This document shows, in pieces, positions 2,859 to 45,544 of a stretch of 45,544 nt of DNA (position 1 is the first letter of the stretch; each line of letters begins with the position of its first letter). The DNA is from Acidimicrobiia bacterium (GTDB lineage Bacteria; Actinomycetota; Acidimicrobiia; Spongiisociales; SHLN01): the NCBI GenBank assembly GCA_041619515.1, contig JBFKDW010000014.1, positions 1 through 45,544 on the forward strand, in the 5' to 3' direction. The position numbers were made by a program, and so were the translations under genes. A model generated the notes under the pieces. It saw only the letters and a program-made list of their open reading frames with translations. It was not told the DNA's origin and ran no database searches.

Positions 2859-2862
2859 CTGT

Positions 2863-5975: not shown

Positions 5976-6503
5976 TCAGGAGCATTCCCGCTCGAAGAAG
6001 GCCGCGATGTTGTCGGCCGCCTGCTGCACCTCATCGGTGTCGAGCAGAGCGGCGGCGGCTTCCAGCTCTGCGATGGTCGCCTGGTCCATCGACGCCATGC
6101 TTTGGGGGTCGGTGTAGTCGAAGCCGAGGTCTTCGAGCGTCTCCCAGAATTCGCCGAAAGCATCGGCGAACAGCTGCATGTCGGACCGTATCTCGGCTGG
6201 GGCCCGGTCGGCGAACTCTTGGAAGTAGTCGGCGGTGAACTCGACACCTCCGGCGCTCGAGCCGCCCGAGAAGGCGGCGCTGGCGGCGGAGACCGAGTCC
6301 ATGGCCCAATTCAGGAGCTCGGGGCAATTGAGTGGGGACATGTCCGAACCATCGTCGAAGTCGATGGACGAGCCGGTAGTTGATGGGCCGACGGTGCCCG
6401 CCGGTGTGGTTGTGGCAGGGGCGGGCGAGTCGGCGTCGCCGTCCGAGCCTCCGCATCCTTGGAGGGCGAGCACGAGTGCGATGAAGACCGTGATGGAGCG
6501 CAT
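5976..6503 (-). CDS. Acidic lipoprotein
   Basis: MRSITVFIALVLALQGC lipobox, Thr/Pro linker, helical domain with a probable Cys pair; RBS AAGGA. Confidence 0.75.
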   Translation of the reverse strand: MRSITVFIALVLALQGCGGSDGDADSPAPATTTPAGTVGPSTTGSSIDFDDGSDMSPLNCPELLNWAMDSVSAASAAFSGGSSAGGVEFTADYFQEFADRAPAEIRSDMQLFADAFGEFWETLEDLGFDYTDPQSMASMDQATIAELEAAAALLDTDEVQQAADNIAAFFERECS

Positions 6504-25171: not shown

Positions 25172-26374
25172 ATGGCGACCACTATCACAATGGGCCCAGA
25201 CGGCCTGCAGGTACCAGACGACCCCGTCATCCCCTTCATCGACGGCGATGGAATCGGCCCCGACATTTGGCACGCGTCGGTGCGCGTCTTCGATGCTGCA
25301 GTAGATAAGGCGTACGGAGGGTCTCGCCGGGTCGCCTGGAAGCAGGTCAAGGCGGGGCAGGCTGCCTTCGACGAGACCGGTGAATGGCTTCCCGAGGAAA
25401 CGGTCGACTTGTTCCGGCAGCATCTCGTCGGCATCAAGGGCCCGCTCACCACCCCGGTGGGTGGAGGCATCCGCAGCCTCAACGTCGCTCTGCGTCAGAT
25501 TCTCGACTTGTACGCCTGCGTGCGGCCGGTGCGCTGGTTCACCGGAGTTCCCTCGCCGGTCAAGCATCCCGAGCTCATCGACATGGTGATCTATCGGGAG
25601 AACACCGAAGACGTCTATGCCGGCATGGAGCTGGAGTCCGGGACTCCCGAGGCCAAAGCAATGCTGGACTTCGTGCAGAAGGAATACGGCTGGACCCCGC
25701 GGCCCGACGCCGGCATCGGCCTGAAGCCGGTGTCGGTCACCGGATCGAAGCGTCTCATCCGGGCCGCCCTCGAGTACGCCCTGGCCAACAATCGCAGATC
25801 GGTGACGCTGGTCCACAAAGGCAACATCATGAAGTTCACCGAAGGCGCCTTCCGGGAATGGGGCTACGAGCTGGTGCGGGACGAATTCTCCGACCGGGCC
25901 GTCGGATGGGACGACTGTGGAGGTGACCCCGGTGACAGGATGCTGGTGAAGGATGTCATCGCGGACGCTTTTCTCCAGCAGATCCTCACCCGCCCGGCCG
26001 AGTATGACGTCATCGCCACCACCAACCTGAACGGTGACTACATCTCGGATGCTCTTGCCGCCCAGGTGGGCGGCATCGGCATCGCTCCCGGCGCCAACAT
26101 CAACTACGAGACCGGCGTGGCGATCTTCGAGGCCACCCACGGAACCGCTCCCAAATACGCCGGCCAGGACAAAGTCAACCCGGGGTCGGTCATCCTCTCC
26201 GGGGCCCTCATGTTCAACTACCTCGGCTGGCCGGAGGTGGAGGCTGCCATCGTGCGAGGGCTGGAGGCGGCCGTGGCCGACAAGATCGTCACCTACGATT
26301 TCGAGCGTCTGATGGAGGGTGCCACCAAGGTCAAGACGTCGGAGTTCGCCGACGCCATGATCGAGCGCATGTAG
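25172..26374 (+). CDS. icd: Isocitrate dehydrogenase, probably NADP-dependent (E. coli-type dimeric)
   Basis: [71 protein letters not shown]. Confidence 0.97.
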
Positions 26375-26548
26375 CCGGCCGATGCCCCCGTGGGCCGGGG
26401 CCTGGACCGTTCCCACCGGTGCTGGGAAAACCATCCATACCACCAAGGGCGGGCTTAACTAGTCACGCTCTGGTTCCGAAGAACAATGGGTGATATCGCT
26501 CGTTGCCGTCGACCGAATCGCGCCGGCTGAACAGAACTCGGGACTCCA

Positions 26549-29500
26549 GTGAAACGGGGTCCCCTTTCTCAGTTTGTGGCGCTGGCGTTGCTCGCCACCG
26601 TCCTGGTGCAGGCCGGGTCGGTTCCTCCGGCTCTCGCCGGAGTCTCGGTGTCGGGCCGGGTGTTCGTCGACACCGCCGGCAACCTGCTGGCCGGGGCCGA
26701 GGCCATCGGCGACGCCGCCAATCCGGTCGAGGCGGGCGTGACGACTCAACTGTGGTTCGACGCCAACGGCAACAGTGTCCTGGACGCAGGCGATACGCAG
26801 GAAGACTTCGTAGACACCGACGCGTCCGGCGCCTACAACCTGTCCAGCATCGAGAACGGCGATCACTGGGTGGTGGTCGACAGCGGTGATATCAATACGG
26901 CCGGGGCCGTGGCCGAGCAGACGTACGGACCGATCGGGGCCGTGTGCACCAACGGTGACGGACCGGAGACCCAGACGATTCGTGGCACGGCCGGCGCCTG
27001 CTACGGGGGCCGGCGCGGAGACACCGCCGACAACTTCGACATCACCGGCAACGCCGAGCACATCGCCTACCTGGCGAACGGGGCGGTGGCATCGAACGTC
27101 GACTTCGGCTTCAGCTACAACGTCGTGACCCGGGTCAGCTATGCGGCCAGCGGAGGCGGGCAGGGTACCTTCACCGCGTTCATCGAGAATGCCAACAAGC
27201 TGGCGGGAGCGAACACGATGCGCTTCGTCCCGGCCGTTCCCACCAACGCCGCCGGCTCGGGCCGCAACTGGTGGCGAGTGACGGCGACGAACGGGGCCCC
27301 CCTCGACAACGCCTTTCCGATGGTCACCGACCCGTTCACAACCGTTGACGGAACCGCCCACAGCTTGCTCGACGGGACCATCCTGGAAGGAACGGCGGGC
27401 GATCCCAACCCCGGGGTGACCGGATACGTCGGACCGGTGGGGACCGGTGCCGACGGCCGGGCCGGGACGGGAGACGAGCCGCTGCTCGATGGCCTGGAGC
27501 GGCCTGAGCTCGAGATCAAGAACGACCGGTCGGTCCAGGCCAAGACCGGGCTCGATTTCCGGGCCGACGACTCGACCGTCCGGCGTATCGCCATCTACGG
27601 CTTCGGCGGCGTCTATCCGGCCGATCAGCTCTTCGGGGATGTGGTATTCGGGCAGTGGGGCGCGGGTGTGAACCGCGTCGTGTTCGAGGACAGCATCGTC
27701 GGAACCAGCGCCGAGGACTTTGCCGCCCCGCCGGCCGCGGAGCGCAGCTCGATCTCGGGGGTGCTGTCATTCGACAGCAGCGGCCGGGTACAGGGCAACC
27801 TCATGGGGTGGACGGACACCTCGGCCCTTCGTCTTCGCAATGCGGTGTCGCCCGGTGGGGGGGCCCCCTCGTTCCTCGTCGCAGACAACGAAGTCCGCAG
27901 CGCCGGTCTGGCATCGGACGTCTCCGACGGCATGGACAGCACCTCGTCCCAGGACATGGACATCCTGCGCAACCTCGTGACCGGCAGCGGCGCCTCCGGC
28001 ATGGACTTCTACACCGGCGCCGGAGGCAACCTCATCGAGGACAACACGATCACCGGCAACGGCGTCGGCACGGTTGGCAACCCGTGGGGCGTGCCGAGCG
28101 AGCCGAACGGAATCACCGTGTACGGAAGCGGAGATGTGATCCGCCACAACGTCATCAGCGGCAACTACTCGGCGGGGATTCTGGTCACCGACGGCGCTAC
28201 CAACGTGACCATCACCGAGAACTCGATGTTCGACAACGGCGAGGACGCCATCCCGGCCAAGAACCCGCCCACCTCCCCTCCCTCGGACCCGAGTGGGCAG
28301 GTCGGGATCGATCTGGTTGCCACCGGCGGCAACAACGGGTTCGGTGACCCGCCGTACTACACGCTCAACGACTCCGGCGACGGGGACGGCGGTGGCAATG
28401 GTCTGCTCAACTTCCCGATCATCGACACGGTCGCGATCGTCGGCTCCGATCTCGAGCTGACCGGATGGGCGCGGCCCGGATCGTCGATCGAGTTCTTCAT
28501 CGCCGACACGGACCCAGCCGGGTTCGGAGAGGGTGAGACCTTTCTCGCCACCAGAGTGGAGGGATCCGGATCTGACCTGGACGGCGGCGCGAGCGCCTAC
28601 TCGGGGGCAATCAACGGGATCGATCAGGGCAGCGACAACACCAACCGGTACCGCTTCCTCATCCCGCTGGCCTCGCTGCCGCCCGTGTCGGGGGGCATGG
28701 AGTTCACCGCCACCGCCACCGTCGGCACGCGCACTTCTGAGTTCAGCGGAGTGGCACCCCTCGACCTCGCCGTGGCCGGCCAGGTGTTCGAGGATGTGGC
28801 AGGCGACGGCGTCAAGGACGGCGGGGACCCCGGGCGCGACGGCGTCGACGTGTCGCTCTACGCCGACGATGGAGACGGGGTGCCCGACGGCGGGGACGCG
28901 CTGGTCGACTCCACGGTGACGGCCGGCGGAGGGAACTACACGCTGGCGGGAGGCATCGGCCTTCACTGGGTGCTGGTCGACTCGAGCGACGTCACTCCAT
29001 CGGCGGGCGGCAGTGGCGTCGCCGAACAAACCTACGGCCCGATCGGTGGCATCTGCACGAACGGCGACGGCCCCGAAACTCAGCGGACGCTCGCCGCCAA
29101 CGGCGCCTGCTTCGGTGGCCGGCGGGGAGATACGGCCGACAACTTCATCATCGGGACCGACGCCGAGCACGTGGCCGGCGTCACGCTCGATGCGTCGACG
29201 CTCGACTTCGGGTTCAGCTTCAACGTGGTGACCCGCACCGCCTACCTCAACGAACAGGGAACGCTCGAGCGATTCGTGCGGAACGCCAACAGCGTCACCG
29301 GGCCAAACGACATGCGGTTCGTGCCGGCCGTTCCCACCAACCAGAGCGGTGGCGGCGGAGATTGGTGGCGGATCACCGTCGGCAACGGTGCGCCGGTGAG
29401 CGAGGCCTTCCCGCCCATCACGGCCAACTCCACCTCCATCGACGGCACGGCTCACAGCCTCCTCGACGGCACGGTTCTGGAGGGCACCGCCGGCGACCCC

Positions 29501-32500
29501 AATCCCGGCTCGACCGGATACGCCGGCCCGGTCGGAACCGGAGCCGACGGCGTCTCGGGCACCGGTGACGAGCCAACACTCGACGGGGTCCTCAAGCCGG
29601 AGCTGGAGATCGTCAACGACCGCGCCGTCCAGGCCACTCGCGGGTTCTACATCCAGGCCGACGACGTCACCGTCCGGCGCCTCGCCATCTACGGCTTCGG
29701 TCAGACCGACCTGAACGACCAGCTGGGCGAGGCCTTTCGGGTTGGCCAATTCGGAAACGGCAACACCGGTTTCCTGTTCGAGGACAACATCATCGGAGCC
29801 GGCGCCGGCGGCTTCACCGACCCTGGTGCCGGGAATCGGCTCTCCAGCTCGGCGTTCCAGATGTCCGAGTCGACCGGGACCATCCGGGGCAACCTGATCG
29901 GATTCACCCGCAAGTCGGCAGTCCGAACCTGGGACTTTGCCGCCCCCGGCCCGGGCATTCCTTCGGTGGTGATCACCGGCAACGAGATCCGGCAGGCCGG
30001 CATCACGAGCGATGTCTACGACGGTGTCGATGCGGTCCGCAGCGTCGGGATCCACCTCATCGGCAACCTGGTGACCGAGAGCGGCGGAGATGGGTTCGAC
30101 ACCTGGACCGATAGCGTGACGCCGGGTGACAATCTGGTCGAAGACAACACGATCTCGTTCAACGGCCGCAACTACTTCGACGACACCGCCGGCGCCCCCG
30201 AGCCGCACGGCATGCGCCTGTTCGGCGTCGACCACGTCGTTCGTCACAACGTCATCCACGACAACTACGGCTCCGCCATCATGGTCGACGACAACGCCGG
30301 GGGGATCATCATCACCGAGAACTCCATGTTCGGGAACGGTGACCTGGTGAGCGGAGCCGCCCCTCCCGGCCCACCGACCCAGAAGCCGGGTATCGACCTG
30401 ATCGCCACCGGAGGAGACACCGAGTGGGGCGAAGACCACCTCGGCCCCATCTACCCGACCCTCAACGATGACGGTGACGCCGACACCGGCGGCAACGACC
30501 TCACCAACTATCCCGTCATCGACACCGCCGAGATCGCCGGCGCCAACCTGGTGCTGACCGGCTGGTCGGCGACCGGGGCGGACATCGAGTTCTTCGTCGC
30601 CGATCCCGACCCGTTCGGCCTGGGTGAGGGTGAAACGTTCCTGACCCGCCAGACCGAAGGCGTCGCCGACGGCGACGGCGGCCTTGGCAGCTACACGTCG
30701 CCGGTCAACGGAATCGACCAGGGCGACGAGACCAACGTGGCCCGTTTCTCGTTCACGGTGCCGCTCGCCTCGCTGGCGTCTCCGGTCGTGGGCGGTGAGC
30801 AACTGACGGCCACCGGAGCAGTCGGCGGTCAAACATCGGAATTCGGGGGCCTCGTGACCGTCACCTCCAGCTCATTCAGCGGCACCGTTTTCGAAGACAT
30901 TGCCGGCGATGCCGTCAAGGACGGCGGCGACCCGGGGCGCGGGTCGGTGGATGTCCGCCTCTACCTGGACGACGGAGACGGCGTTCCCGACGGTGGAGAC
31001 ACGCTGGTCGACAGCGATACCACCGCAGCCGACGGAAGCTATGCCCTTGTTGCGGGTGCCGGGAACCACTGGATAGTGGTCGACTCCGGCGACGTAACAC
31101 CCTCCGCCGGCGGGGGCGGCGTTGCCGAGCAGACGTTTGGCCCGATCGGAGCGGTGTGCACGAACGGCGATTCGCCGGAGACCCAAACGAGCCGCGCAAC
31201 GGCCGGGCCCTGTTACGGCGGCCGGCGAGGCGACGTGGTGGACAATTTCGACATCAGCTCGAACGCCGAGCACGTGGCCCTGGTGGCCGGCGTCGCCGCC
31301 GGCCTCGACTTTGGATTCAGCTTCAACGTGGTCACCCGAACGAGCGACGCCGACAGCCAGGGCACTCTTCGCCGCTTCGTCAATAACTCCATCGCCGGGA
31401 CCGGTGCCAACGCCATGCGATTCGTTCCCGCCGTCCCGGTCACCGTCGACCTCGATGCCGTCCCGGGCACCGGTGACGAATGGTGGACGATCGTGCTCTC
31501 AGCGCCGCTCCCCGCCCTGACGGCGTCCGATACCACGATCGACGGCACCGCCTACGACCTTGCGGATGGCTCGACCGTGCGCGATACCAACCTCGGCACC
31601 GGCGGCAATCCGGAGCTGGCGGGCGCCGGCGTGGGTACCGGAGCGGATGGTGTCGCCGGAACCGGCGACGATCCCTCGCTGCCCCCGTACCCGCGTCCCG
31701 AGCTGGAGATCGACGCCGACAATACGAGCGATCCGCTCACGATCTCATCCAGCAATACGACGATCCGGCGCCTCGCCCTCTTCGATGCCGATGCGTTCCA
31801 GGCCGCCGTCGTCGTGAGCGGGGGAACCGGCAGCCTCATCGAGAGCAACTTCCTCGGTCCGAGGGCCGACGGCACGGATCCGGGAGCGGGAGACCGCATC
31901 CAGCACGGGATCGATGTCAACGGCGGCGAGGCGGATGTGTTCGACAACTTCATCGCATACGGTGAGGACGGGGGCGTGCTCGCGCGGGACTCGGCCGCCA
32001 TTCGCGGCAACGACATCTACCGGATGGCGCTGAGCGACCCGAACGGTGACGGCATCAGCGTCGAAGGATCGGTGGTGGCCGACTCCATCGACGTGCGCGA
32101 AAACCGCGTCCATCGCGTTGGCGGGTACACATTCGAGTCGTGGCAGGCCGCCGGCGGGTACACCGTGGAGGACAACACGTTCATGAACGCGGGCGAGGGC
32201 GGCGGAGTAGAAGACGGAGGAGTGCGCGTGTTCGGGTCGGACTCCATCTTCCGTCACAACATCGTCTCCAACAACGCAGGCCACGGACTGGTGCTCGCCG
32301 AATGGACCTCGCCGGGTGACAACGCTCGCAACTTGATTTCTCAGAACTCGTTCTCCGGCAACGGCGGGGTCGCGATCGACCAGGACCACACGAACATCGG
32401 CGGGGCCCCGCCGAACGGAGACGGAATCACCCTCAACTCAGGAGCGCCCGCAACCTGCGGGTACGACGCCTCCCGCACCAACGAGGGCATCGACTACCCG

Positions 32501-35500
32501 GTCATCACGAGCGCGCTCGACGGCGGCGCCACGACCACAGTGGTCGGAACCGCCTGCCCGGGAGCCACCGTCGAGGTCTACCGCGCCCTCGCTAACGGCT
32601 TCACCGACAACACCGATCCGGTCGGTGGAACCGGTACCGACCACGGCGAGGGCCAGGTCTACGTCGGGTCCGCGGTGGCCGACGGGTCGGGCAATTGGAG
32701 CTTCGTCGATGCGGGACTCAATTCGACCGATGTGATCACCGCCCTCGCCCTGGATGCCACCGCCAACACGTCGGAGTTCGGAGCCAACGCCATCGTGACG
32801 GCTGCAGCTACCAGCAGCGTTTCCGGCACCGTCTTCGAGGACATCGCCGGTGATGCGCTCCCCGGCATCGAGGCGGTCGGTGATGCCACCAACCCCGGAG
32901 TGGGCGGCGTCAACGTCTACCTGTTCAACGACGACGGTGGTGTCGCCGGCCAGCCCGACCCGACCGACACCCTCGCCGCCGGCCCCATCGCCAGCGCCGG
33001 CGACGGCAGCTACAGCTTCCCGGCGCTGGCCGACGGCACCTACTTCGTCGCCGTCGAGTCGCTGACCGTCGCGCCTTCCCAGCCTCTCCAGGCCGCCGGC
33101 TACGCGGGCGTGGCGTGGGCGGAGCAGACCTGGGCGGCGGACGGGGCCTATTGCGCCGACGGCGCCGGGGGCACCATCCAGCTGGCCGCAGCCGGACCGT
33201 GCTACGGCGGGGCCGGGGGAGCCACTCCCGACGCGGCCAATCCTGCGGACGCAACCACCTTCGAGCACATCACCCGGGCCGTCGTGTCGGGCGCCAGCGT
33301 GGGGGCAGTCGATTTCGGCTTCTCGTTCAACGTGTTCGTGTCGGACAGCGGCTTCACCAACTGGCCGGTCTACACCTCACCGCACGAGCAGGGATCACTC
33401 GATCAGGCGCTGCTCAACGCCTTCGTGCTCGACGGCCCCAACTCGCTGCGGTTCGTCCCGGCGGTTCCGCCGACGGTGACCACCGGAAGCGGTGATTGGT
33501 GGAGCATCGACTTCATTGCCGGCGGAGATGATGCCCCCATCGACATCGAGGACGAGGACACCGTCGTCGACGGGACCGCCTTCTCATTCACCGACGGGAT
33601 CACGGTCCGTGACACCAACCCCGGTTTCATGGGGGCCAACGCCGCCGGGGGCATGACCGTCGGCGTGGACGGGCTGCCCCTCCCGCAGGTCGAGAAGCCG
33701 GAACTGGAGATCATCGGCCGACTCGACGTGTCAGATCAGCGCCCTGAGCCCGACGTGGCCGATCGTTCGGTCATCCGCGATCTCGCCATCTGGGGGTCGG
33801 TGGCCAACGGAAACCTCAACCTGAACGGCTTCAACGCCGGTGTCACCAGCGACCTGGTCTTCGAGCGCCTGGTGATCGGAAGCCGGCCGGACGCTTTTGC
33901 CGACGCCGGAGCGGGCAGCCTGGCCGCCATCCGGGCGGGCAACGGCAACTGGCCGAACGTCACGGTAAGGGACAGCTTGATCGGCTGGGCCGGGTTGCAC
34001 GGCATGATCACCGACCCCGGATGGACCATCACCGGCAACGAGATCCGGGCTTTGAGCAACTACGGGGTGTATTCGGTGGCCGGGACGGCGGTTGTCTCCG
34101 GCAATCTGCTGGCCGAGAACCTCGGCAACAAGTCGGACAATGCCGTCGGCGACCTGTGGGAGAACAACTCGATCGTCGACAGCACCAGCTACGGACTGGC
34201 GCTGGAGTCGGGTGGTCACACGGCCCGGCGCAACATCATCACCGGCAACGGTGCCGACGGGATCGAGGTGTGGAGCGACCAGGGCAGCGCTCACACGCCC
34301 TCGATCGGCAACATCATCAGCGAGAACCTGTTCGGCGGCAACGGCGGCATCGCCATCGACCTGTGGGATTCGGGGGCGGGCAGCGATGGCATCACCGTCA
34401 ACGACGGTGCCACCGATCCACTCTCAGGCAACGAAGGCCTGGATCAGCCCGTCGTCACGAGCACCAGCTATGTGGGTGGCACCGCCACCATCAACGGCAC
34501 GGCCTGCAGCGGGTGCCTGATCGAGATCTATCGCGGGGTGGCAGACCCGGACGCATCCGACACCCGCAGCCTGGGCGACGCCGACGACGGGAATTACGGC
34601 GAAGGCGTGCAGCTCCTCACGCCGCTCGGCTCGCCGGTGGTGGCCGCCGGCGGCTCGTTCGCGTTCGTCACCGGCGCCCTGGCAGCCGGCGAGTACGTGA
34701 CGATGACGGCTCGCGATCCCGGCACCGGCAATACCTCGGAGTTCTCCAGGAACGCCCGGGTCGGCTGGGAGGTCGCAGGCACGGTGTTCGAAGACGTCGA
34801 CGGCAACGTGCTCGACGGGGGCGAGCTGATCGGCGACGCCGGGAACCCGGTGGTAGACGGCGTGGACGTGTGGATCTATCTCGACGACGGGGACAACATC
34901 CCCGACGGCGGCGACACGCTGGAGGCCGGGCCGGTCGCCACTGCCGGTGGCGGAGCCTTCGCCTTCCCGAACCTGCCCGACGGCGTGTTCTGGGTGGTCG
35001 CAGACTCGCGGGACATGTCACCGGCGGCGGGCATCGACGCCTCCTATTCGGCTACCACGCCTCAGTCGGACCAGACCTACGGACCGGGCGGCGGCTGGTG
35101 TGCCGACGGGCTGGGGGGAACGGTCGAGCGGGCCGGCGGCGGGCCGTGCTTCGGAGGCAAGGACGGGTCGGCCGCCGACAATCCTGCCACCCTGGCCGGC
35201 GCCGAGCACCTCGCCCGCATCGTCGTGTCCGGGTCTGATGTGGCCAACGTCGACTTCGGGTTCAGCTACAACGTCGTGACCAACCTGCAAGCTGCGTTCG
35301 GAGCTTCGCTCGACGTCGCCTCCTACCAGGGCTCACTCGACCAATTCCTTCGTAACGCCAACGCAATCACAGGGCCGAACGCAATGCGATTCGTTCCGGC
35401 TGTCCCCACCAACGGGGCCGGGGGCGGTGGCACCTGGTGGCGGATCGACTACTCGGGCATGGCTGCCGGCCAGACCCCGGTCATGAGCCACGACGCCGGC

Positions 35501-38500: not shown

Positions 38501-41500
38501 AACGAAGGCCTCGACTACCCGACGATCACGAGTGCGCTGTGGGACGGCGCTTCCGTCACCGTCGACGGCACCGGCTGTGAGAACGCCACAATCGAGATCT
38601 ATCGGGCGGTGGCCGGAGCCGGCGATACCGACGGCAATGGTGACGACCACGGCGAAGGCGTCGAGTTCATCGGCAGCACCGTGTCGTCGCCGGCCGGTGC
38701 CTTCACCTTCGTCACCGCCGGGTTTGCGCTGGGGGACGAGGTGTCGGCCATCGCCATCGACGGTGCCGGCAACACCTCGGAGTTTGCGTTGAACCTGACG
38801 GTGATCGACGCCGAGAGCATCGCCGGGACCGTGTTTGAGGACGTGGCGGGCGACGTCCTCAACGACGGTGTGGTGGGCGATGCCAACAACCCCGGCGCGG
38901 CAAACGCCACGGTCCGGCTGTACCTGGATACCGGCAACGGAGTGCCCGACGGCGGTGACGTGCTCATCTCGACACTGGCCACCGACGCGGCCGGTGGCTA
39001 CTCGTTCACCGGGCTGGCTCCCGGCACCTATTACGTGGCGGTCGACTCCCAGACCGTCGACACCGCTGCCGGATACCACCCGGTGGCGACGCCGGAGAAC
39101 GTGGTGTGGGCCGAGCAGACCTACGGACCGGCCGGCTCGTACGACGGCTCCGGCTTCACTGGAGCGGCAGGCGCCCACTACGGAGGCGCAGGAGGGTCGA
39201 TTGCCGACGACTTCACCACGCTGGCGGGCTCCGAGCACGTCGCCAGGGTGATAATCGCCGGGGCCGGAGTGACCGGCGTCGACTTCGGGTTCTCGTTCAA
39301 CGTCGTGACCAACCTCGACGCATCGGTCGACGCCATCTGGTCCAATCAGACTCATCAGGGCTCACTGGACCAGTTCCTTCGCAATGCCAAGCTCATCGTC
39401 GGGCCCAACGCCATGCGCTTCGTGCCGGCAGTTCCCGCCTCCCAGGACCCCGATGCCACCCCGGGAAGCGGCGACGAGTGGTGGCGCATCGACCTGTCGG
39501 CAGCTCCCACCGCCCTGGCCTGGATAACCGACCCATTCACGACCGTGGACGGAACCGCGTTCGACTCCGCCGACGGGGCCACCGTGCTGGACACCAACAG
39601 CGGATACCTCGGCGCCAACGCAGGCGGGGGAGTGACGGTAGGGACTGCGGCCGTCCCGCTGCCTCAGGTCGCCCGGCCGGAGTTGGAGTTGTACGGTCCC
39701 GGCGGCATCAACTTCGGGCTGGTGCTCAACGTATTTCCACCGGCCGGCACCGCCGGGGATGACGCCACGATCACCGACATCGCCATCGACCGGTTCAGTG
39801 TTGCCGTGCGGGGAACCAGCATCGACGACCTCACCGTGAGCCGGTCGGTGATCGGATCGGGGCCGCGCACGTTCGCCGATCCGGGAGGCCAGTCGGCAGG
39901 AGTCAGCGTCGACCTGTCGAGCCGGCTCGTGGTGAGCGACAGCCTCGTCGGGTTCAACTCGAGTGCCAACGTCCAGGCCGTCACCGGAACCGACATCACC
40001 GTGACCGGCAGCGAGCTCCGGGGCGGCACCACGGGCAGCGGATCGGTCGCTCTCTCCGACGCCGGCCAGGACAGTCTCATCCAGGGCAACCTCATCGCCG
40101 GGTCCGGCAATGACGGCATCTATGTGAGCGGAAGCGTCGCCCCCGCCGGCATCGTCGACAACGACGTGACGGGTCACGGTGGGACCGGCATCCGGCTGGC
40201 CGAGTCGACCGGAGGCCACACCGTCGCCCGCAACGTCGTGTCTGGAAACGGTGGGGACGGCGTGGCGGTGGCCGCCAACAGCCCCAACAACCTCATCACC
40301 GAGAATGCGTTCGGTGGCAATGGTGAGTCGGCGATCGATCTGGGCACCGGGGGAACGGCCGGAGACGGGATCACCGTCAACTCGGGTGTGGCGCCCGCGT
40401 GCGGATACGAGGCGGGCGCCCGCGCCAACGACGGCATCGACTACCCCACCATCGTCTCGGCAGTCGACACCGGCCCGAGCTCGACGGTGACCGGCACCGC
40501 CTGCGCCAACGCCCGGATCGAGATCTACCGGGCCGTGGCCGGATCCGGCGACACCCTGGCCGGCACCGACTACGGCGAGGGGACGGTGTTCCTCGGCTTC
40601 ACCACCGCGGACGCCCTCGGGGTCTGGACCTACGTCGATGCCGCCGTATCGCTCGGAGACGAGCTGTCGACGATCGCCATCGACGCAGCCGGCAACACCT
40701 CAGAGTTCTCACCAAATGCCTCCGTGGTGGCATTCCAGATCGCCGGAAAAGTGTTCGAAGACATCGTCGGGGATGTCCTCAACGATGGCGTCATCAACGA
40801 CGCCGGCAATCCGGGCTCCGGCAACGTCACGCTCCACCTGTATCAGGATGGCGGCGATGGTGTGCCGGACGGGGTGGACGACGGAGCTGCCATCGCCACG
40901 ACAACGACGGATGCAACGCCGGGAGCAACCCTCGGCGACTACTCATTCGGTGCCCTCCCGAGCGGCACCTACTGGGTGGTCGCAGACTCCAAGACCGTCA
41001 CGCCCTCCGCCGGCGTCAACAGCTCGCCCAGCGACGACGATGACGTGTGGGCCGAACAGACCTACGCCGCCGCCGGCGGGTACGACGGGGCGGGATTCCT
41101 GGCGGCCGCCGGACCGCTCTACGGCGGCAGAAGCGGGGCGGGGGCCGACGACGCCTCCGGGCTGGCGACCTCCGAGCACGTCACCCGCGTCGTGGTGGGA
41201 GGGTCCGACGTTGCCGGGGTCGATTTCGGCTTCTCCTTCGATGTAGTCACCAACCTGGAGGCGGGAGACGGCACAGATGCCGATCCTTCCGCCGACCGGG
41301 TCTTCCAGGGGTCGCTGCGCCAGTTCATCCTCAACGCCAACGCCGTGGCGGGTGCCAACACGATGCGGTTCACGCCGGCCGTTGCGGTCAACGGCTCAGA
41401 CGGCGCCGGCAACGACTGGTGGCGGGTCGATGTGGCCACCGTCCTTCCCGTCATCGATGATGCCTTCACTTCGATCGACGGGACCGCCCGTGACGTGGCA

Positions 41501-44500
41501 GACGGAATATCGGTGCTGGACTCCAACGCGGCGGCCGTGGGGGCCAACCTCACCGTTGGGGTGGGTGGGTTGTTCACGACCCCGGTGCTCGATCCCGAGC
41601 TGGAGGTCAAAGGTGACGACGTGATCTTGAAGGGCCTCGAGTTCGCAAGCACCGCCGACGACAGCACAGTGCGCGAGCTCGCCATCAACCGGTTCCAGTG
41701 GTGGTCCATCGACCTCGACGGCGTGGCACCGGACACCCTCGACTCGATCGTCGTCGAGAACACGGTGCTGGGCGGAACGAGCCCCGCCGACTTCTCGCTG
41801 GATGCCGCCAGCGTCATGAGCAGCGGGGTGGCCGGCGACGACCTGACCAACTCGACCATCCGCAACAACATCATCGGGTATCTGTCGGGCCACGGCATCC
41901 ATCTCGACGACGGGTCGGCCGACAACCTGGTCGAGGCCAACGAGGTGCGGGCCGTCAACACCGGCATCTATCTCAAAGGGTCCGGGGCCGGACAGCCGGC
42001 CAGGATGACGCTGCGGGGCAACGCCTTCCTGGAGGGAAGCTTCTGGGGCATCCGCACCTGGAACAGCGCCGGCGATCATGTCATCACCGAGAACACGGTT
42101 CGGCTGGGCGGGGCTTGGGGCATCGACCTCGATGGCCCCAACTTCACCGTCACCGGCAACATCATCACCGACAACGGTGACGACGGCATCTACGTTCGAC
42201 CTTCGGTCAGCGATGCCCTCATCTCCCAGAACCGGTTCGGGAACAATGCCGAGCTGGCCATCGACCTCTTCGGAGTCAACGACATCGACCTCAACGACGA
42301 CGGCGATGCCGACCTCGGAGCGAACGGTCTGCTCAACTTCCCCGTGATCGAATCCGCCTTCGTGGTTGCCGGCAACCTGACGGTGACGGGTTTTGCCGGG
42401 CCGGGAGTCGGCATCGAGTTCTACGAAGCAGTCGGGGCGGCAAATGATCAGAATGGCGGCGGTACCCCCCACGGGGAGGGCATCGCCTATCTGTTCGGGG
42501 ACACCGAGGGCTCAGCCAGTGACGCCGACCCCACGGCGGGCTCGTACTCGTCGCCCGACTTCGGAGCCGACTCCTCGGCGCAACGATTCAGCTTCACCGT
42601 GCCGCTCCCGGCGGGTCTGGCCGTCGGCGAGCAGATCTCGGCGCTGGCCATCGACGCCACCGGCAACACCTCCGAGTTCGGTCCCAATGCGACCGTGGTG
42701 GCGGGTCAGAACATCTCAGGGGTCATCTTCGAAGACATCGCCGGGGATCTGCTCGCCGACGGGGCCATCGGCGGCCCCCTCAACCCGGGAGCTGCCAACG
42801 CCACGGTCCGGTTGTATCGGGACACAGGAAACGGCATACCCGGCGGCAGCGATGTCCTCGTTGCCACGGCGACGTCCAGCCCGGCCGGTGCATACGCCTT
42901 CACCGGCCTCGGCCCGGGAACCTATTTCGTCGCCGTGGACTCGAGAACCGTATCGCCGGCCGCCGGTGTGAATGCATCTCCCGCCGATGACGACGATGTG
43001 TGGGCCGAGCAGACCTACGGGCCCGCCGGCGCCTACGACGGCGGGTTCGCGGGAGCCGCCGGTGCCTTCTTCGGCGGGAAGACCGCCAACCTTGCCGACG
43101 ACGCTGCCTCGCTGGCCTCGGCCGAACATATTGCCCGGGCCATCATCGCCGGTGGAGCTGTTGCCAACCTCGATTTCGGGTTCAGCTTCAACGTCGTGAC
43201 CAACCTCGAAGCCGGTGATGCGACGGACGCCGATCCCGCTGCCGACCGGGTGTTCCAGGGGTCGCTGCGCCAGTTCGTCCTCAATGCCAACGCGCTGGCA
43301 GGCGCCAACCGGCTCCGCTTCACCCCGGCGGTTGCGACCAACGCCACCGACGGCGGCGGCAACGACTGGTGGCGGATAGATGTGACCAGCCCGTTGCCGG
43401 TCATCGACGACGCCTTCACCACCATCGACGGGACCGCCCACGACGCGGCCGACGGGGCCACCGTCGTCGATTCCAACCCGCAGATTCTCGGCTATGTCGG
43501 CCCGGTGGGCACCGGCCCCGACGGCGTCGCCGGCACGGGGGACGAGCCGGCCCTCTCCGGAGTGGCGGCACCCGAGCTGGAGATAACCGGTCCCCAGTCG
43601 TTCGACGGGCTGCAGCTGGCGGCCGGGGCCGACGACTTCGTGCTGGAGAACATCAGCATGTGGGGCTTCGACAGCATCCTCAGAGAAACCGGCGTCGGCC
43701 GTTCGATCGTTCGCACCAGCATCCTCGGCTCCGGGCCGGGCGCCATCGCCGACCCGGGTGCCGGTCTGCGCACGTGGACCTCGGCGGTCGTGCCGGACGC
43801 CTCCCCGGATGGGCTGGTCGAGGGCAGCTTCATCGGCTTCACGGGCGGTTCGGCGCTCTCCCTCGATCCGGTTTCCCCGCTCGGCTCGGACTGGACGGTG
43901 CGCCGCAACGAGATCCGCGACGGGGCGACGATCCGGGCGGTTGCGACCGTGTGGGACGGCGTCCAGATCGGTGACAGCGCGCTCGTCGAGGAGAACTACA
44001 TCACCAATAGCGGGGGCCACGGCATCGACGGGTGGCGCTCGGACGGGCCGGCAGTCATTCGCGAGAACACCATCACCGGCAATGGGCATGGAAACGGAAC
44101 GCCCCGCCAAACCGCCGGCATTCGCCTGTATGGATCGGGCCACGTGATCGAACACAACCTCATCACCGGCAACGTCGGGCCCGGCATCAGCCTCACCGGT
44201 GACGTCCCGGCCTGGCCGGACGGCTCACCCGCCATACAGAACCGGGTGAGCATGAACCAGTTTGGCGGAAATGGTGGCATCTCGATCGACCTGGTGGCGA
44301 CCGGCGGCGGCGACGGTGAACAGGGTGACGGGATCACACCCAACGACGGGTCCACCGATCCCACCCACGGAAACATCGCCATCGACTATCCGGTGATCGC
44401 CAGCGCCACCATCGGCGGCGGCACGACCACCGTGGTGGGAACCGGTTGTGCCGCCTGTGAAGTCGAGGTCTACCGGGCGGCGCCCGACGCCGACTTCTCC

Positions 44501-45544
44501 GACAACACCGACCCGGTTGGTGGAACCGGGTCAGACCACGGTGAGGGGCTCGAATACCTGGGTACCACCTTTGCCGACGGGACGGGCAACTGGTCCCTGG
44601 TCACGACAGCGCTCGTGACCGGCGATGCGGTGAGCTCCATCGCCATCGACGCCGCCGGCAACACATCGGAGTTCGGTGCCAACCTCGTCGTCGGAACACC
44701 CGACCTGTCCGTGACCAAGGTGGATTCACTGGTCGGCGACGGAAACGGAAACGGCAAGGTCGACCCGGGCGACACGGTGCGTTATCTCATCACGATCTCC
44801 AACACCGGCGACGGCTTCCTGACAGGGATAACCCTCTCCGACCCGCTCGTCGATCCCGAGATCACGCTCTACGACGGCACCGTCGTCGCCAGCCAGGGGA
44901 GTGTTGTCACCGGCAACAGCCCCGGAGACACCTCGGTTATCGTCGACGTCGGCGCGCTGGCCCCGGCCGCCAGCGCCACAGTCCAGTTCAACGTCCAGGC
45001 ATCGAGCGGCGCCTCGCCGTATGTGGCTTCAGTCTCCAACCAGGGCATCGTGGCCAGCGACCAGCTGGCGGACAGGCTCACCGACGACCCCGACGATGCC
45101 ACCTCGAACAGCGATCCGACTGCCGTGACGCTCAATCACATTCCGAGCCTGGCCGACGACGCCTTGACTGTCTCCGAGGACAGCGGGACCAGCGCAGTGG
45201 CGGCCCCAGGGGTGCTGGGCAACGACACGGTGCACGACGGGGTGAGCACACTCGCCATCGCGAGCGGGCCGGCCAACGGAGCCGCCAACATCGCTCTCGA
45301 CGGATCCTACGACTACACCCCCGACCCCCACTACTTCGGTCTCGACTCGTTCGACTACGAGGTGTGCGACCTCGACGGCGACTGCCGCACCGCCACGGTG
45401 GCGATCACGGTGGATCCGGTGAACGATGAGCCGGGGTTTGTGCCGGGTGGTGATGTGGTGGTGGCCGAGGACAGCGGTGCCTATAGCGCTCCGTGGGCTT
45501 CGAGTATCTCGGTGGGTCCGGCCAACGAGTCGGCCCAGATCGGC
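26549..45544 (+). CDS. Giant secreted multi-module surface protein (>=6332 aa, 3' end beyond the window): 9 x [SdrD-B-like Ig + conserved core + right-handed beta-helix + Ig], then DUF11 and cadherin/Big_9-like domains
   Basis: GTG 26549 follows an in-frame TGA at 26528. Sec signal MKRGPLSQFVALALLATVLVQAGSVPPALA. The ORF track lists no + ORF in this frame after 26549, as expected if no stop occurs. The frame still reads as protein at the end (NDEPGFVPGGDVVVAEDSG...). Confidence 0.9.
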   Translation, partial: MKRGPLSQFVALALLATVLVQAGSVPPALAGVSVSGRVFVDTAGNLLAGAEAIGDAANPVEAGVTTQLWFDANGNSVLDAGDTQEDFVDTDASGAYNLSSIENGDHWVVVDSGDINTAGAVAEQTYGPIGAVCTNGDGPETQTIRGTAGACYGGRRGDTADNFDITGNAEHIAYLANGAVASNVDFGFSYNVVTRVSYAASGGGQGTFTAFIENANKLAGANTMRFVPAVPTNAAGSGRNWWRVTATNGAPLDNAFPMVTDPFTTVDGTAHSLLDGTILEGTAGDPNPGVTGYVGPVGTGADGRAGTGDEPLLDGLERPELEIKNDRSVQAKTGLDFRADDSTVRRIAIYGFGGVYPADQLFGDVVFGQWGAGVNRVVFEDSIVGTSAEDFAAPPAAERSSISGVLSFDSSGRVQGNLMGWTDTSALRLRNAVSPGGGAPSFLVADNEVRSAGLASDVSDGMDSTSSQDMDILRNLVTGSGASGMDFYTGAGGNLIEDNTITGNGVGTVGNPWGVPSEPNGITVYGSGDVIRHNVISGNYSAGILVTDGATNVTITENSMFDNGEDAIPAKNPPTSPPSDPSGQVGIDLVATGGNNGFGDPPYYTLNDSGDGDGGGNGLLNFPIIDTVAIVGSDLELTGWARPGSSIEFFIADTDPAGFGEGETFLATRVEGSGSDLDGGASAYSGAINGIDQGSDNTNRYRFLIPLASLPPVSGGMEFTATATVGTRTSEFSGVAPLDLAVAGQVFEDVAGDGVKDGGDPGRDGVDVSLYADDGDGVPDGGDALVDSTVTAGGGNYTLAGGIGLHWVLVDSSDVTPSAGGSGVAEQTYGPIGGICTNGDGPETQRTLAANGACFGGRRGDTADNFIIGTDAEHVAGVTLDASTLDFGFSFNVVTRTAYLNEQGTLERFVRNANSVTGPNDMRFVPAVPTNQSGGGGDWWRITVGNGAPVSEAFPPITANSTSIDGTAHSLLDGTVLEGTAGDPNPGSTGYAGPVGTGADGVSGTGDEPTLDGVLKPELEIVNDRAVQATRGFYIQADDVTVRRLAIYGFGQTDLNDQLGEAFRVGQFGNGNTGFLFEDNIIGAGAGGFTDPGAGNRLSSSAFQMSESTGTIRGNLIGFTRKSAVRTWDFAAPGPGIPSVVITGNEIRQAGITSDVYDGVDAVRSVGIHLIGNLVTESGGDGFDTWTDSVTPGDNLVEDNTISFNGRNYFDDTAGAPEPHGMRLFGVDHVVRHNVIHDNYGSAIMVDDNAGGIIITENSMFGNGDLVSGAAPPGPPTQKPGIDLIATGGDTEWGEDHLGPIYPTLNDDGDADTGGNDLTNYPVIDTAEIAGANLVLTGWSATGADIEFFVADPDPFGLGEGETFLTRQTEGVADGDGGLGSYTSPVNGIDQGDETNVARFSFTVPLASLASPVVGGEQLTATGAVGGQTSEFGGLVTVTSSSFSGTVFEDIAGDAVKDGGDPGRGSVDVRLYLDDGDGVPDGGDTLVDSDTTAADGSYALVAGAGNHWIVVDSGDVTPSAGGGGVAEQTFGPIGAVCTNGDSPETQTSRATAGPCYGGRRGDVVDNFDISSNAEHVALVAGVAAGLDFGFSFNVVTRTSDADSQGTLRRFVNNSIAGTGANAMRFVPAVPVTVDLDAVPGTGDEWWTIVLSAPLPALTASDTTIDGTAYDLADGSTVRDTNLGTGGNPELAGAGVGTGADGVAGTGDDPSLPPYPRPELEIDADNTSDPLTISSSNTTIRRLALFDADAFQAAVVVSGGTGSLIESNFLGPRADGTDPGAGDRIQHGIDVNGGEADVFDNFIAYGEDGGVLARDSAAIRGNDIYRMALSDPNGDGISVEGSVVADSIDVRENRVHRVGGYTFESWQAAGGYTVEDNTFMNAGEGGGVEDGGVRVFGSDSIFRHNIVSNNAGHGLVLAEWTSPGDNARNLISQNSFSGNGGVAIDQDHTNIGGAPPNGDGITLNSGAPATCGYDASRTNEGIDYPVITSALDGGATTTVVGTACPGATVEVYRALANGFTDNTDPVGGTGTDHGEGQVYVGSAVADGSGNWSFVDAGLNSTDVITALALDATANTSEFGANAIVTAAATSSVSGTVFEDIAGDALPGIEAVGDATNPGVGGVNVYLFNDDGGVAGQPDPTDTLAAGPIASAGDGSYSFPALADGTYFVAVESLTVAPSQPLQAAGYAGVAWAEQTWAADGAYCADGAGGTIQLAAAGPCYGGAGGATPDAANPADATTFEHITRAVVSGASVGAVDFGFSFNVFVSDSGFTNWPVYTSPHEQGSLDQALLNAFVLDGPNSLRFVPAVPPTVTTGSGDWWSIDFIAGGDDAPIDIEDEDTVVDGTAFSFTDGITVRDTNPGFMGANAAGGMTVGVDGLPLPQVEKPELEIIGRLDVSDQRPEPDVADRSVIRDLAIWGSVANGNLNLNGFNAGVTSDLVFERLVIGSRPDAFADAGAGSLAAIRAGNGNWPNVTVRDSLIGWAGLHGMITDPGWTITGNEIRALSNYGVYSVAGTAVVSGNLLAENLGNKSDNAVGDLWENNSIVDSTSYGLALESGGHTARRNIITGNGADGIEVWSDQGSAHTPSIGNIISENLFGGNGGIAIDLWDSGAGSDGITVNDGATDPLSGNEGLDQPVVTSTSYVGGTATINGTACSGCLIEIYRGVADPDASDTRSLGDADDGNYGEGVQLLTPLGSPVVAAGGSFAFVTGALAAGEYVTMTARDPGTGNTSEFSRNARVGWEVAGTVFEDVDGNVLDGGELIGDAGNPVVDGVDVWIYLDDGDNIPDGGDTLEAGPVATAGGGAFAFPNLPDGVFWVVADSRDMSPAAGIDASYSATTPQSDQTYGPGGGWCADGLGGTVERAGGGPCFGGKDGSAADNPATLAGAEHLARIVVSGSDVANVDFGFSYNVVTNLQAAFGASLDVASYQGSLDQFLRNANAITGPNAMRFVPAVPTNGAGGGGTWWRIDYSGMAAGQTPVMSHDAGTTVDGTAFSLADGTTVLDTNPGFLGANAGGGMTVGVDGIALPQVERPELELMRSDSGIGDAFAVDYNAATGQVPDGFTLNDLSTWGFANGVRMVGGALRPSGITIQRNVIGAAPDGLVDPLVPGTLWALYLRAVDDGFITDNLLGFVDRDGVVIADTTGWTVTGNEIREAAQVVAGADGLNDGAGSSGNAIIGNLIVDSGGMGIDGTSTGSVIQNNSVSGSGVLGLQTAGIRKTDGPNTISRNVLTANAGPGVLIPDSDSGNHISENDFSANGSIAIDLVVAGGSTDGGDGISVNDGATVGTTGNLGFDYPIIDSATISGGNLTVTGWARPGAQIEFYEAAGLLDDENTGGTAHGEGIDWLFTATEGSGSDADGSSGGYADPDYGSDAAAERFSFTVVAPAGLAAGDEISATGTDGGSNTSEFGPNAVVGFGIAGTIFVDTAGDGLADGPIGPAPNPFEAGTRVELFLDGGDGLPDGTDDVYQGFTVSSLADGSYAFTGLAAGVYWVTVDSQGVVEGPYNAGYSGADTWPEQTYGPAGAASFDGAAWSFAAAAGPFYGGAEWDVSDDFPLTTSLATAEHIARVDTTGGSAGTMDFGFSFNVVTNTRGGSAAQDPGAGAGQRSVQGSLRQFLTNANAIDGPHTLRFVPAGPTNATDGAGHDWWSVVVTAGLPAITDEDTSIDGRAYSSADGTTIRDDNGGVLGAGGTVGVAAVGLSPVARPELEIVNDRVTNPVPIGLDVAAGDVTIERIGIYGFGDVLGGNIRVGSGAASNFTGTQIRNSVIGSGAAAFADPGAVARSSHFNVIVRGADAGTVADNLIGFGGNSGILLLDQADVWTITGNEVRGNAISSTNSDGIGTQGGGSDGHTVSGNLIVGQQGFGLELNGSLGSHTVTDNTITGNGFGGTETGGIDLYGTGSTIQGNIISSNAGPGVLVQAFEAARPGTPAVNNRISANHFTLNGGPSIDLNAFGSDRQLGDGITLNDGGPANLCGYNNTAGAEHGNEGLDYPTITSALWDGASVTVDGTGCENATIEIYRAVAGAGDTDGNGDDHGEGVEFIGSTVSSPAGAFTFVTAGFALGDEVSAIAIDGAGNTSEFALNLTVIDAESIAGTVFEDVAGDVLNDGVVGDANNPGAANATVRLYLDTGNGVPDGGDVLISTLATDAAGGYSFTGLAPGTYYVAVDSQTVDTAAGYHPVATPENVVWAEQTYGPAGSYDGSGFTGAAGAHYGGAGGSIADDFTTLAGSEHVARVIIAGAGVTGVDFGFSFNVVTNLDASVDAIWSNQTHQGSLDQFLRNAKLIVGPNAMRFVPAVPASQDPDATPGSGDEWWRIDLSAAPTALAWITDPFTTVDGTAFDSADGATVLDTNSGYLGANAGGGVTVGTAAVPLPQVARPELELYGPGGINFGLVLNVFPPAGTAGDDATITDIAIDRFSVAVRGTSIDDLTVSRSVIGSGPRTFADPGGQSAGVSVDLSSRLVVSDSLVGFNSSANVQAVTGTDITVTGSELRGGTTGSGSVALSDAGQDSLIQGNLIAGSGNDGIYVSGSVAPAGIVDNDVTGHGGTGIRLAESTGGHTVARNVVSGNGGDGVAVAANSPNNLITENAFGGNGESAIDLGTGGTAGDGITVNSGVAPACGYEAGARANDGIDYPTIVSAVDTGPSSTVTGTACANARIEIYRAVAGSGDTLAGTDYGEGTVFLGFTTADALGVWTYVDAAVSLGDELSTIAIDAAGNTSEFSPNASVVAFQIAGKVFEDIVGDVLNDGVINDAGNPGSGNVTLHLYQDGGDGVPDGVDDGAAIATTTTDATPGATLGDYSFGALPSGTYWVVADSKTVTPSAGVNSSPSDDDDVWAEQTYAAAGGYDGAGFLAAAGPLYGGRSGAGADDASGLATSEHVTRVVVGGSDVAGVDFGFSFDVVTNLEAGDGTDADPSADRVFQGSLRQFILNANAVAGANTMRFTPAVAVNGSDGAGNDWWRVDVATVLPVIDDAFTSIDGTARDVADGISVLDSNAAAVGANLTVGVGGLFTTPVLDPELEVKGDDVILKGLEFASTADDSTVRELAINRFQWWSIDLDGVAPDTLDSIVVENTVLGGTSPADFSLDAASVMSSGVAGDDLTNSTIRNNIIGYLSGHGIHLDDGSADNLVEANEVRAVNTGIYLKGSGAGQPARMTLRGNAFLEGSFWGIRTWNSAGDHVITENTVRLGGAWGIDLDGPNFTVTGNIITDNGDDGIYVRPSVSDALISQNRFGNNAELAIDLFGVNDIDLNDDGDADLGANGLLNFPVIESAFVVAGNLTVTGFAGPGVGIEFYEAVGAANDQNGGGTPHGEGIAYLFGDTEGSASDADPTAGSYSSPDFGADSSAQRFSFTVPLPAGLAVGEQISALAIDATGNTSEFGPNATVVAGQNISGVIFEDIAGDLLADGAIGGPLNPGAANATVRLYRDTGNGIPGGSDVLVATATSSPAGAYAFTGLGPGTYFVAVDSRTVSPAAGVNASPADDDDVWAEQTYGPAGAYDGGFAGAAGAFFGGKTANLADDAASLASAEHIARAIIAGGAVANLDFGFSFNVVTNLEAGDATDADPAADRVFQGSLRQFVLNANALAGANRLRFTPAVATNATDGGGNDWWRIDVTSPLPVIDDAFTTIDGTAHDAADGATVVDSNPQILGYVGPVGTGPDGVAGTGDEPALSGVAAPELEITGPQSFDGLQLAAGADDFVLENISMWGFDSILRETGVGRSIVRTSILGSGPGAIADPGAGLRTWTSAVVPDASPDGLVEGSFIGFTGGSALSLDPVSPLGSDWTVRRNEIRDGATIRAVATVWDGVQIGDSALVEENYITNSGGHGIDGWRSDGPAVIRENTITGNGHGNGTPRQTAGIRLYGSGHVIEHNLITGNVGPGISLTGDVPAWPDGSPAIQNRVSMNQFGGNGGISIDLVATGGGDGEQGDGITPNDGSTDPTHGNIAIDYPVIASATIGGGTTTVVGTGCAACEVEVYRAAPDADFSDNTDPVGGTGSDHGEGLEYLGTTFADGTGNWSLVTTALVTGDAVSSIAIDAAGNTSEFGANLVVGTPDLSVTKVDSLVGDGNGNGKVDPGDTVRYLITISNTGDGFLTGITLSDPLVDPEITLYDGTVVASQGSVVTGNSPGDTSVIVDVGALAPAASATVQFNVQASSGASPYVASVSNQGIVASDQLADRLTDDPDDATSNSDPTAVTLNHIPSLADDALTVSEDSGTSAVAAPGVLGNDTVHDGVSTLAIASGPANGAANIALDGSYDYTPDPHYFGLDSFDYEVCDLDGDCRTATVAITVDPVNDEPGFVPGGDVVVAEDSGAYSAPWASSISVGPANESAQIG
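26648..44692 (+). repeat. Nine diverged tandem protein modules of ~1.9-2.1 kb within the giant ORF
   Basis: GxVFED-type starts near 26648, 28772, 30875, 32819, 34772, 36797, 38819, 40739, 42713; DFGFSxNVV-type motif at 27101, 29204, 31307, 33311, 35252, 37280, 39281, 41222, 43172; each module ends in (N)TSEF. Confidence 0.9.
44699..45133 (+). other. DUF11 domain within the giant ORF
   Basis: PDLSVTKVD...VDPGDTVRYLITISNTGD...LSDPL...VGALAPAASATVQFNV...VSNQG. Confidence 0.75.
45134..45544 (+). other. Cadherin-like/Big_9 (tandem-95) Ig domains within the giant ORF
   Basis: NHIPSLADDALTVSEDSG...GVLGND...GPANG...DGSYDYTPDPHYFGLDSFDYEVCD...TATVAITVDPVNDEP. Confidence 0.75.

Follow-up and report, generated by a model that had tools for sequence, protein, structure and literature searches.

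What would a bacterium do with nine different beta-helix units on a single chain? The question is raised by the last 19 kb of a 45,544-nt stretch of DNA from an Acidimicrobiia bacterium (assembly GCA_041619515.1, contig JBFKDW010000014.1). This stretch, the window, is the entire contig (G000:C14). Frame +2, read from a GTG at 26549, runs for 6,332 codons to the window end without a stop (26549..45544, + strand); over the same interval the other two forward frames contain 107 and 67 stops. An earlier note, made from the sequence, had reported this stop-free frame as missing from the track of open reading frames (ORFs), and it does appear only among open-ended ORFs, which explains its absence. 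Because the window is the whole contig, the stop codon of the giant gene lies outside it and the gene was cut by the assembly. We give an even chance to the reading in which the product, likely exported and likely anchored by sortase, is a surface protein with nine divergent beta-helix units by which it would grip acidic polymers or surfaces with more than one specificity.

Nine modules in one open frame

The protein begins with a predicted Sec signal peptide (26549..26638; residues 1 to 30), recognized by eye in the translation from its basic start, hydrophobic core and Ala-x-Ala. A near-identical leader begins the gene that follows icd in a same-genus genome (G003), in keeping with the secreted giant that had been proposed. 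Nine modules follow, starting at residues 32, 740, 1441, 2089, 2740, 3415, 4089, 4729 and 5387. They are 640 to 708 aa long and share 32.8 to 53.1% pairwise identity, and each of the motifs TSEF, DFGFS, PELE and QG[ST][LF] occurs nine times in register along the chain. Pfam Beta_helix (PF13229) matches all nine modules; in one scan eight were over the cut-off and module 4 fell below it with 24.2 bits (26.0 in another scan). Together with the models and fold matches described below, these matches bear out the claim of nine different beta-helix modules. No copies of the module were found in the same genome outside this contig.

All modules lie on the + strand. Module 1 (26642..28765; residues 32 to 739) consists of an SdrD-B-like Ig domain, a capped beta-helix and an Ig domain, and module 2 (28766..30868; 740 to 1440) is its sister, with 53% identity. 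They are followed by modules 3 (30869..32812; 1441 to 2088), 4 (32813..34765; 2089 to 2739), 5 (34766..36790; 2740 to 3414), 6 (36791..38812; 3415 to 4088), 7 (38813..40732; 4089 to 4728), 8 (40733..42706; 4729 to 5386) and 9 (42707..44698; 5387 to 6050).

Ig domains stand on both sides of each helix, as the earlier note had described. SdrD_B (PF17210) is over the cut-off in module 7 only and weak in several others, and the family alignment reveals conserved Asp10, Asp39 and Asp49 in the SdrD-B-like domain, a putative acidic loop of the calcium type. The DxDG motif assigned to every module is present as variants, but the exact DGDGVPDGGD is confined to modules 2 and 3. Similarly, the proposed core is conserved but forms no separate domain, being made up of the insertion and last strand of the sandwich, the helix cap and the first rungs. 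The suggestion of a GSLR/CSLREA-type cap fails, in that the CSLREA model TIGR04214 had no match in any of five segments scanned (modules 1, 3, 6 and 9 and the tail).

Behind the modules we identified a DUF11 (CLIPPER) stalk domain (44699..45133; PF01345, E 2.3e-7; TIGR01451 over the cut-off), a Big_9 or cadherin-like domain (45134..45412; PF17963, E 9.5e-17; PF17892, E 3.5e-9) and the first 44 residues of a cadherin-like tandem repeat with a unit of about 110 aa (45413..45544), all on the + strand. DUF11 and cadherin-like domains had been expected here. They had also been expected to form a calcium-stiffened stalk, which for DUF11 does not fit: in the available part of bioRxiv 10.1101/2025.04.25.650565, these domains are isopeptide-stabilised in the one case studied.

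No single contig from the read sets spans the whole gene, and this, with a stop variant at residue 5362 and a relic of the gene in a close relative (below), could point to an assembly chimera of several shorter genes or to a gene in decay. We give such an origin almost no credence. Reads cover 30 of 30 bins in four public runs from three studies, with no indels listed, although one of these runs may be the source of the assembly itself. Read-set contigs as long as 7.9 and 6.9 kb extend over several module borders with about 99.9% identity and even depth, the modules (33 to 53% identical) are too divergent for mis-joining, and a similar long array (L142) occurs in another assembly. The 36 listed substitutions comprise 28 silent changes, 7 that alter a residue and 1 stop. 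We treat the stop as a sequencing error or minor allele; it comes from one contig at a depth of 3.2 in one run, and the other three runs have the reference base. GC at the three codon positions (0.65/0.53/0.85) is steady across all 2-kb blocks, and at positions 1 and 3 it resembles that of icd and sucC. Five of the six runs in which the gene was found are marine metagenomes, and no RNA run is listed among them. There was no match to plasmids, and none to a sigma-70 promoter or terminator in 26300-26700.

Fold and groove of the module

The structure of module 3, predicted with 88 sequences, is a single confident unit (pLDDT 94.3, pTM 0.94) and replaced a first model, of module 9, built with 9 sequences (pLDDT 70.1). 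It contains an SdrD-B-like sandwich with a conserved insertion (about residues 1 to 150), a helix cap, a right-handed beta-helix and a C-terminal Ig domain, so that the beta-helix suspected from sequence is also obtained by structure prediction. Each module is predicted to fold as one unit. For both models the best Foldseek match is 8WM1, titled 3-dehydroshikimate (DHS) dehydratase, with E values of 1.5e-9 and 3.3e-10; the runners-up have 2e-3 and 7e-5. Against the module 3 model 8WM1 aligns over 367 residues with Z 27.3, rmsd 2.6 and 20% identity (19-20% over both models), model residues 150-644 falling onto chain residues 21-484. The second-ranked entry reaches Z 24.3, and all entries but 8WM1 align over at most 303 residues.

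By sequence the same link appears only from a distance. Three profiles built from modules alone (A1, A2 and A3), searched with limits as loose as E 1 or 10, missed 8WM1, as did a single CSLREA protein used as query, and a profile of 22 distant relatives finds it with E 1.4e-32, at the cap and the C-terminal Ig domain. The entry is likely the QuiC-type AroZ of Acinetobacter pittii, because its residue 363 is Arg and the available text of PMC13412374 gives an R363A variant of ApAroZ, an enzyme assigned to that species in the part of PMC11837758 consulted. According to excerpts of PMC9324987 and PMC7442255, membrane-associated DHS dehydratases are structurally distinct from the TIM-barrel classes, and Acinetobacter QuiC is described in the accessible portion of PMC4213383 as periplasmic and acting in quinate catabolism. 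Our literature search, outside which lay most subscription journals, yielded no account of the structure or catalytic residues of 8WM1.

As modelled, the module is thus an SdrD-B-like domain fused to a QuiC-like unit: it shares with 8WM1 the cap, right-handed beta-helix and C-terminal Ig domain along chain 21-484, and differs in that the dehydratase is a single domain set without an SdrD-B-like domain, at 20% identity. The top rank of 8WM1 for both models and the common layout might suggest that the modules are true DHS dehydratases like periplasmic Acinetobacter QuiC/AroZ. We regard this as very improbable, given the low identity and the failure of the module profiles to find the enzyme. Groove residues also appear to differ when rungs are compared by eye, protocatechuate 3,4-dioxygenase (PF00775) was not found in the genome, and no quinate-pathway genes recur as neighbors. 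The dehydratase acts in quinate catabolism, whereas the giant gene is flanked by icd and probably mdh, with no quinate or protocatechuate gene context.

Polysaccharide enzymes make up most of the remaining fold matches. AlgG/AlgE epimerases, PL6, PL9, GH87 and phage tailspikes share the fold (Z 20-25) and have acids on the same groove sheet, but they match the helix only (at most 303 residues aligned) and carry one helix per chain in the matched entries, and their catalytic motifs are incomplete in the giant protein's modules. The beta-helix adhesin PfbA is also among the matches (Z 21.5), and the folds of the SdrD B-domain, SiiE and Bap match the Ig parts. CSLREA and parallel beta-helix repeat proteins (TIGR04214, TIGR03804, PF13229, PF05048) have a related cap and C-terminal Ig domain and appear as distant matches; the modules differ from them in the absence of a TIGR04214 match and in the fused SdrD-B-like domain with its conserved insertion.

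We surveyed the groove in 217 modules (the nine described here and 208 dereplicated others), using module 9 numbering. The helix varies more than any other part of the module, its Asn ladder excepted, and conservation is strongest at the Ig-cap junction and in that ladder. Within the groove, position 417 is acidic in 69% of modules and 441 in 75%, position 468 is Glu or Gln in 64%, and 473 is basic in 67%; aromatic residues occupy 443 and 475 in about half. At the comparison positions 431, 433, 455, 457, 485, 487, 495 and 497, acids reach at most 17% and bases at most 11%. Outside the groove set, positions 402 and 404 are also conserved (81% acid and 53% base, respectively). Proximity of the groove residues was deduced from rung register and alignments. 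From these sequence patterns, the groove site would consist of two acids on successive rungs, a Glu or Gln, and an Arg to hold the carboxylate of a ligand, probably together with a metal.

The complete set (Asp, Asp/Glu, Glu/Gln, Arg) is present in 98 of the 217 modules. In the giant protein it is intact in modules 2 (scored by hand, with the Glu one column off), 3, 5 and 9. It is partial in modules 1 and 6, which have Thr and Asp, respectively, in place of the Arg. Module 4 has lost the set and has shortened loops, module 7 has also lost it, and module 8 is recharged, with Lys and Arg at the family Asp positions. Intact, altered and lost versions on one chain thus form a natural panel for separating binding from catalysis.

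Comparison with known active sites gives partial likenesses. Column 441 aligns with Asp317 of AlgG (the D317A entry has Ala at that column), which places position 441 in the groove. Of the AlgG DPHD motif the first Asp alone aligns, without the His or second Asp. The Asp-Asp pair in the GH87 groove, which we take to be catalytic, is missing, as the pair of 7c7d aligns with non-acidic profile positions. In PL9, Asp209, Asp233, Asp237 and the catalytic Lys273 are named in the available text of PMC10992409 and PMC6627557, and Asp209, Asp237 and Lys273 would give an acid-acid-base series on successive rungs like that of the module (PMC10992409, in part), if the register matches as it appears to. 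The PL9 calcium and catalytic set is nevertheless incomplete: Asp occupies the middle position (438) in 6% of modules, and Arg stands in place of Lys.

The modules might also be mainly structural, as stiff spacers or a surface coat, with the groove a leftover or a stabilizing metal site and adhesion residing in other domains. The concentration of conservation in the Ig-cap junction and Asn ladder would fit, as would the loss of the groove set in three modules and the absence of the gene from the icd locus in three same-genus genomes, with a relic in a fourth. We consider this unlikely. Groove signatures are kept within subtypes across phyla, module 1 stands at the tip without another head, a spacer needs no nine distinct subtypes, and silent variants outnumber residue-changing ones by 28 to 7.

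Spread, subtypes and the probable 3' end of the gene

The module family is present in many phyla, usually as a single module. A search of 1.84 billion proteins gave 2,069 cluster representatives with E no higher than 1e-30 and 13,304 with a limit of 1e-10. The 150 best representatives contain no conserved segment in 19 cases, one in 92, two in 25, three in 10, four in 2 and five in 2. In 76 ORFs from 74 genome loci the counts are one in 58, two in 10, three in 5, four in 2 (Woeseiaceae) and five in 1 (WOR-3), and 64 ORFs from 67 metagenome loci have at most three per ORF. These counts are lower bounds, as many loci end at contig edges. Additionally, five whole modules and two partial ones (probably seven), interrupted by a frameshift, take up all of L142, a 10.8-kb metagenome contig. 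Matches occur in 16 of 60 related genomes, 14 of them strong and often in tandem. The nearest relatives are Acidimicrobiia records, which makes that class the likely host. Nine is the highest module count seen, the end of a continuum and not unique. The earlier view of a multi-head array unlike the usual layout therefore stands in that nine heads are the most observed, and needs tempering in that arrays of two to five exist in other phyla, with a probable seven in L142.

Our searches, with most subscription journals and supplements outside their reach, returned no paper on the module family or the array, though one may exist beyond that scope. For Actinobacteriota, the available portion of bioRxiv 10.1101/2023.11.21.568195 already describes giant secreted and LPXTG-type proteins.

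Within the giant protein, mean identity is 54% in the cap region and 32% in the helix region, in line with the claim that the heads differ. Modules 1 and 2 pair with each other, as do 7 and 9. Module 5 falls among modules from Acidimicrobiia and Woeseiaceae (support 99, 59-60% identity; 59% to those of Woeseiaceae), module 3 groups with L040 (66% identity), and the subtype of module 8 is also found in P0001 and P0006. The nearest helix relatives of modules 3, 5 and 8, some of them in other phyla, share their groove signatures. A single clade of all nine modules was rejected with p-AU 5e-77 in a 24-row tree (24 of 88 rows, picked after a first FastTree tree had been seen). These patterns fit subtypes with distinct ligands that may have moved as whole units. 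In P0024, P0016, P0120, L101 and L102 the SdrD-like domain, cap and C-terminal Ig domain are kept and the helix profiles are mismatched between them. This suggests that the helix middle may be exchangeable among these relatives.

The gene likely resumes on a second contig of the same genome (G000:C15:1-3252, L034). C15 begins with the tail of a cadherin-like repeat inside a 1,084-aa open frame that contains a cadherin domain, four DUF11 domains, two SdrD_B domains, LPQTG, a hydrophobic stretch and a basic tail. In four of four runs a short unitig links C15:85-114 into window 45413-45433, and the cadherin-like repeat at the junction has about four times the single-copy read depth, as expected if a tandem array separates the two contigs. 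The ORF on C15 is followed by mdh, and the giant gene is preceded in the window by folD and icd (isocitrate dehydrogenase; 25172..26374, + strand). In four of seven same-genus genomes mdh comes right after icd, in G003 a related giant follows icd, and two are uninformative. Because read-graph links and icd-mdh synteny agree, we infer that C15 holds the 3' end of the gene. Full length would then come to some 7,400 aa or more, with 8,300 as a possible upper value, and covalent wall anchoring through the LPQTG is probable. The genome encodes one sortase (PF04203, E 3.5e-30). Looking beyond the contig for a stop and anchor thus led to the LPQTG tail, by way of a probable join.

An open-ended ORF on a third contig, C19, was considered as the 3' end and set aside, since the loose end of the reads matches C15 only and synteny favors C15. 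That ORF (L035; last 1.8 kb, - strand) is open at its 5' end, is 589 aa long, and contains related cadherin-like repeats and two lamin-tail domains without an anchor.

Between icd and mdh of the close relative G004 lies a relic (L113, G004:C35, 787-1336) consisting of the last DUF11 domain and the anchor region in two frames. It is 61-72% identical to residues 896-1076 of the C15 frame, showing a probable loss of the giant gene by deletion. In G003 the gene after icd (L022, G003:C90:1-7293) has the same leader, then an extra N-terminal region of 500 aa with FG-GAP-like repeats and at least three modules; this extra region before the modules indicates that heads may vary at the icd locus. In four same-family genomes (L125, L126, L128 and L129) a different type of malate dehydrogenase, about 25% identical to the one of this genome, follows icd.

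Grip or catalysis

Genome context favors binding. The giant gene has housekeeping genes around it, with icd before it and mdh likely after it. No catabolic neighbor recurs in the 321 ORFs that flank the 74 genome loci; the neighbors that do recur are two-component signaling proteins, at 19 loci, and secreted proteins of the DUF11/OmpA type, at 12. KduI, UxaC and PF00775 were not found in this genome, which is 95.65% complete. The binding reading is preferred because of these housekeeping surroundings, signaling and secreted neighbors, and missing catabolic genes. The layout is also that of a fibrillar adhesin, with a leader, modules, a DUF11/cadherin stalk and the anchor tail on C15, and the genome encodes a sortase. 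Sortase-anchored fibrillar adhesins whose stalks are built from DUF11/CLIPPER, SdrD-B and cadherin-like domains share the leader, the Ig-type stalk, the LPxTG (here through the probable join) and the sortase. They differ, PfbA included, in having one tip domain on a long stalk, whereas nine beta-helix units make up most of the giant protein.

Under this grip reading, the protein would be exported by Sec and attached to the wall by sortase through LPQTG. The stalk of DUF11/CLIPPER domains and cadherin-like repeats would hold nine grooves away from the wall, and module subtypes, gained and shuffled as whole units, would bind different ligands, with the groove Arg holding a carboxylate, probably with a metal. 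Modules 2, 3, 5 and 9, which keep the family site, could also be catalytic; in modules 4, 7 and 8 it is lost or recharged. If the modules only bind, the protein is a large multi-head adhesin, worth noting rather than transformative.

Several observations weigh against this reading. The top structural and profile match is an enzyme, and polysaccharide enzymes dominate the remaining fold matches. The acid-acid-Arg set kept in 98 of 217 modules is typical of catalytic grooves. Proteins of about one module exist (P0062, 670 aa; an Atlas cluster of 674 aa with 68 members), the genome has a KDPG-aldolase-family gene and a LigB-family gene, and the rows of the clade test were chosen with a tree already in view. 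Finally, the cadherin-like repeat has a second exit, at 1.5 to 2.5 times single depth and absent from the assembly, which may be another repeat unit of the giant gene or belong elsewhere, so the anchor stays something that we infer.

Much of this would suit a tethered multi-enzyme array. In it, modules with intact grooves would use a metal to act beside a carboxylate as lyases, epimerases or dehydratases, with a substrate of its own for every subtype, and degenerate modules would be binders or spacers. The closest solved relative is a dehydratase along cap, helix and Ig (Z 27.3; profile E 1.4e-32), position 441 corresponds to AlgG Asp317, the acid-acid-base series recalls PL9 Asp209/Asp237/Lys273 (PMC10992409, available part), groove acids and base at 69, 75 and 67% stand far above the comparison positions, and one-module proteins exist. 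Yet all known catalytic motifs are incomplete here (the Asp-Asp pair and the DPHD His are missing, and Arg replaces Lys), no catabolic neighbors recur and KduI, UxaC and PF00775 were not found, and five of the nine modules lack part of the groove set. We hold the array to be possible, and less probable than the multi-specific grip. The earlier alternatives of an adhesin or a glycan-binding or depolymerase array accordingly survive as one reading of several: the giant multi-head protein is there, but the closest solved structure is a small-molecule enzyme.

A bolder version, which we find doubtful, would make the cap-beta-helix-Ig superfamily, including the QuiC-type dehydratase, a large unrecognised enzyme family. 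The giant protein would then be a wall-tethered assembly line of nine exchangeable subtypes, four of them with the groove set intact, working on different carboxylate substrates in marine sediment. It would resemble a cellulosome made as a single polypeptide, and its subtypes would have been exchanged between Actinomycetota and Gammaproteobacteria. On either reading, a large uncharacterised module family is now tied to one solved enzyme and its conserved groove site named, and the link to 8WM1 together with that site opens a direct test of proteins annotated as 'beta-helix repeat proteins'. The new points are the solved-enzyme link, the groove site with its graded loss, and the anchor recovered through a probable join.

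Other surface proteins were noted in this genome. Contig C15 encodes three tandem secreted paralogues (G000:C15:20838-26913; 760, 766 and 530 aa stop to stop). Their C-terminal beta-helices closely resemble one another and have no relation to the module; DxDGDG-type repeats stand at the N-terminus of two, and one has a Thr-rich linker. The first 3.2 kb of G000:C8 (- strand) hold a 3'-open ORF that, by eye, apparently combines membrane helices and an HD-GYP-like domain with a long stalk of Big_9-type repeats. The window itself encodes two ordinary surface proteins: one with GerMN/Gmad2 Ig domains (10963-12651), the other lipoprotein-like and carrying an F5/8 type C (discoidin) domain (17042-17866).

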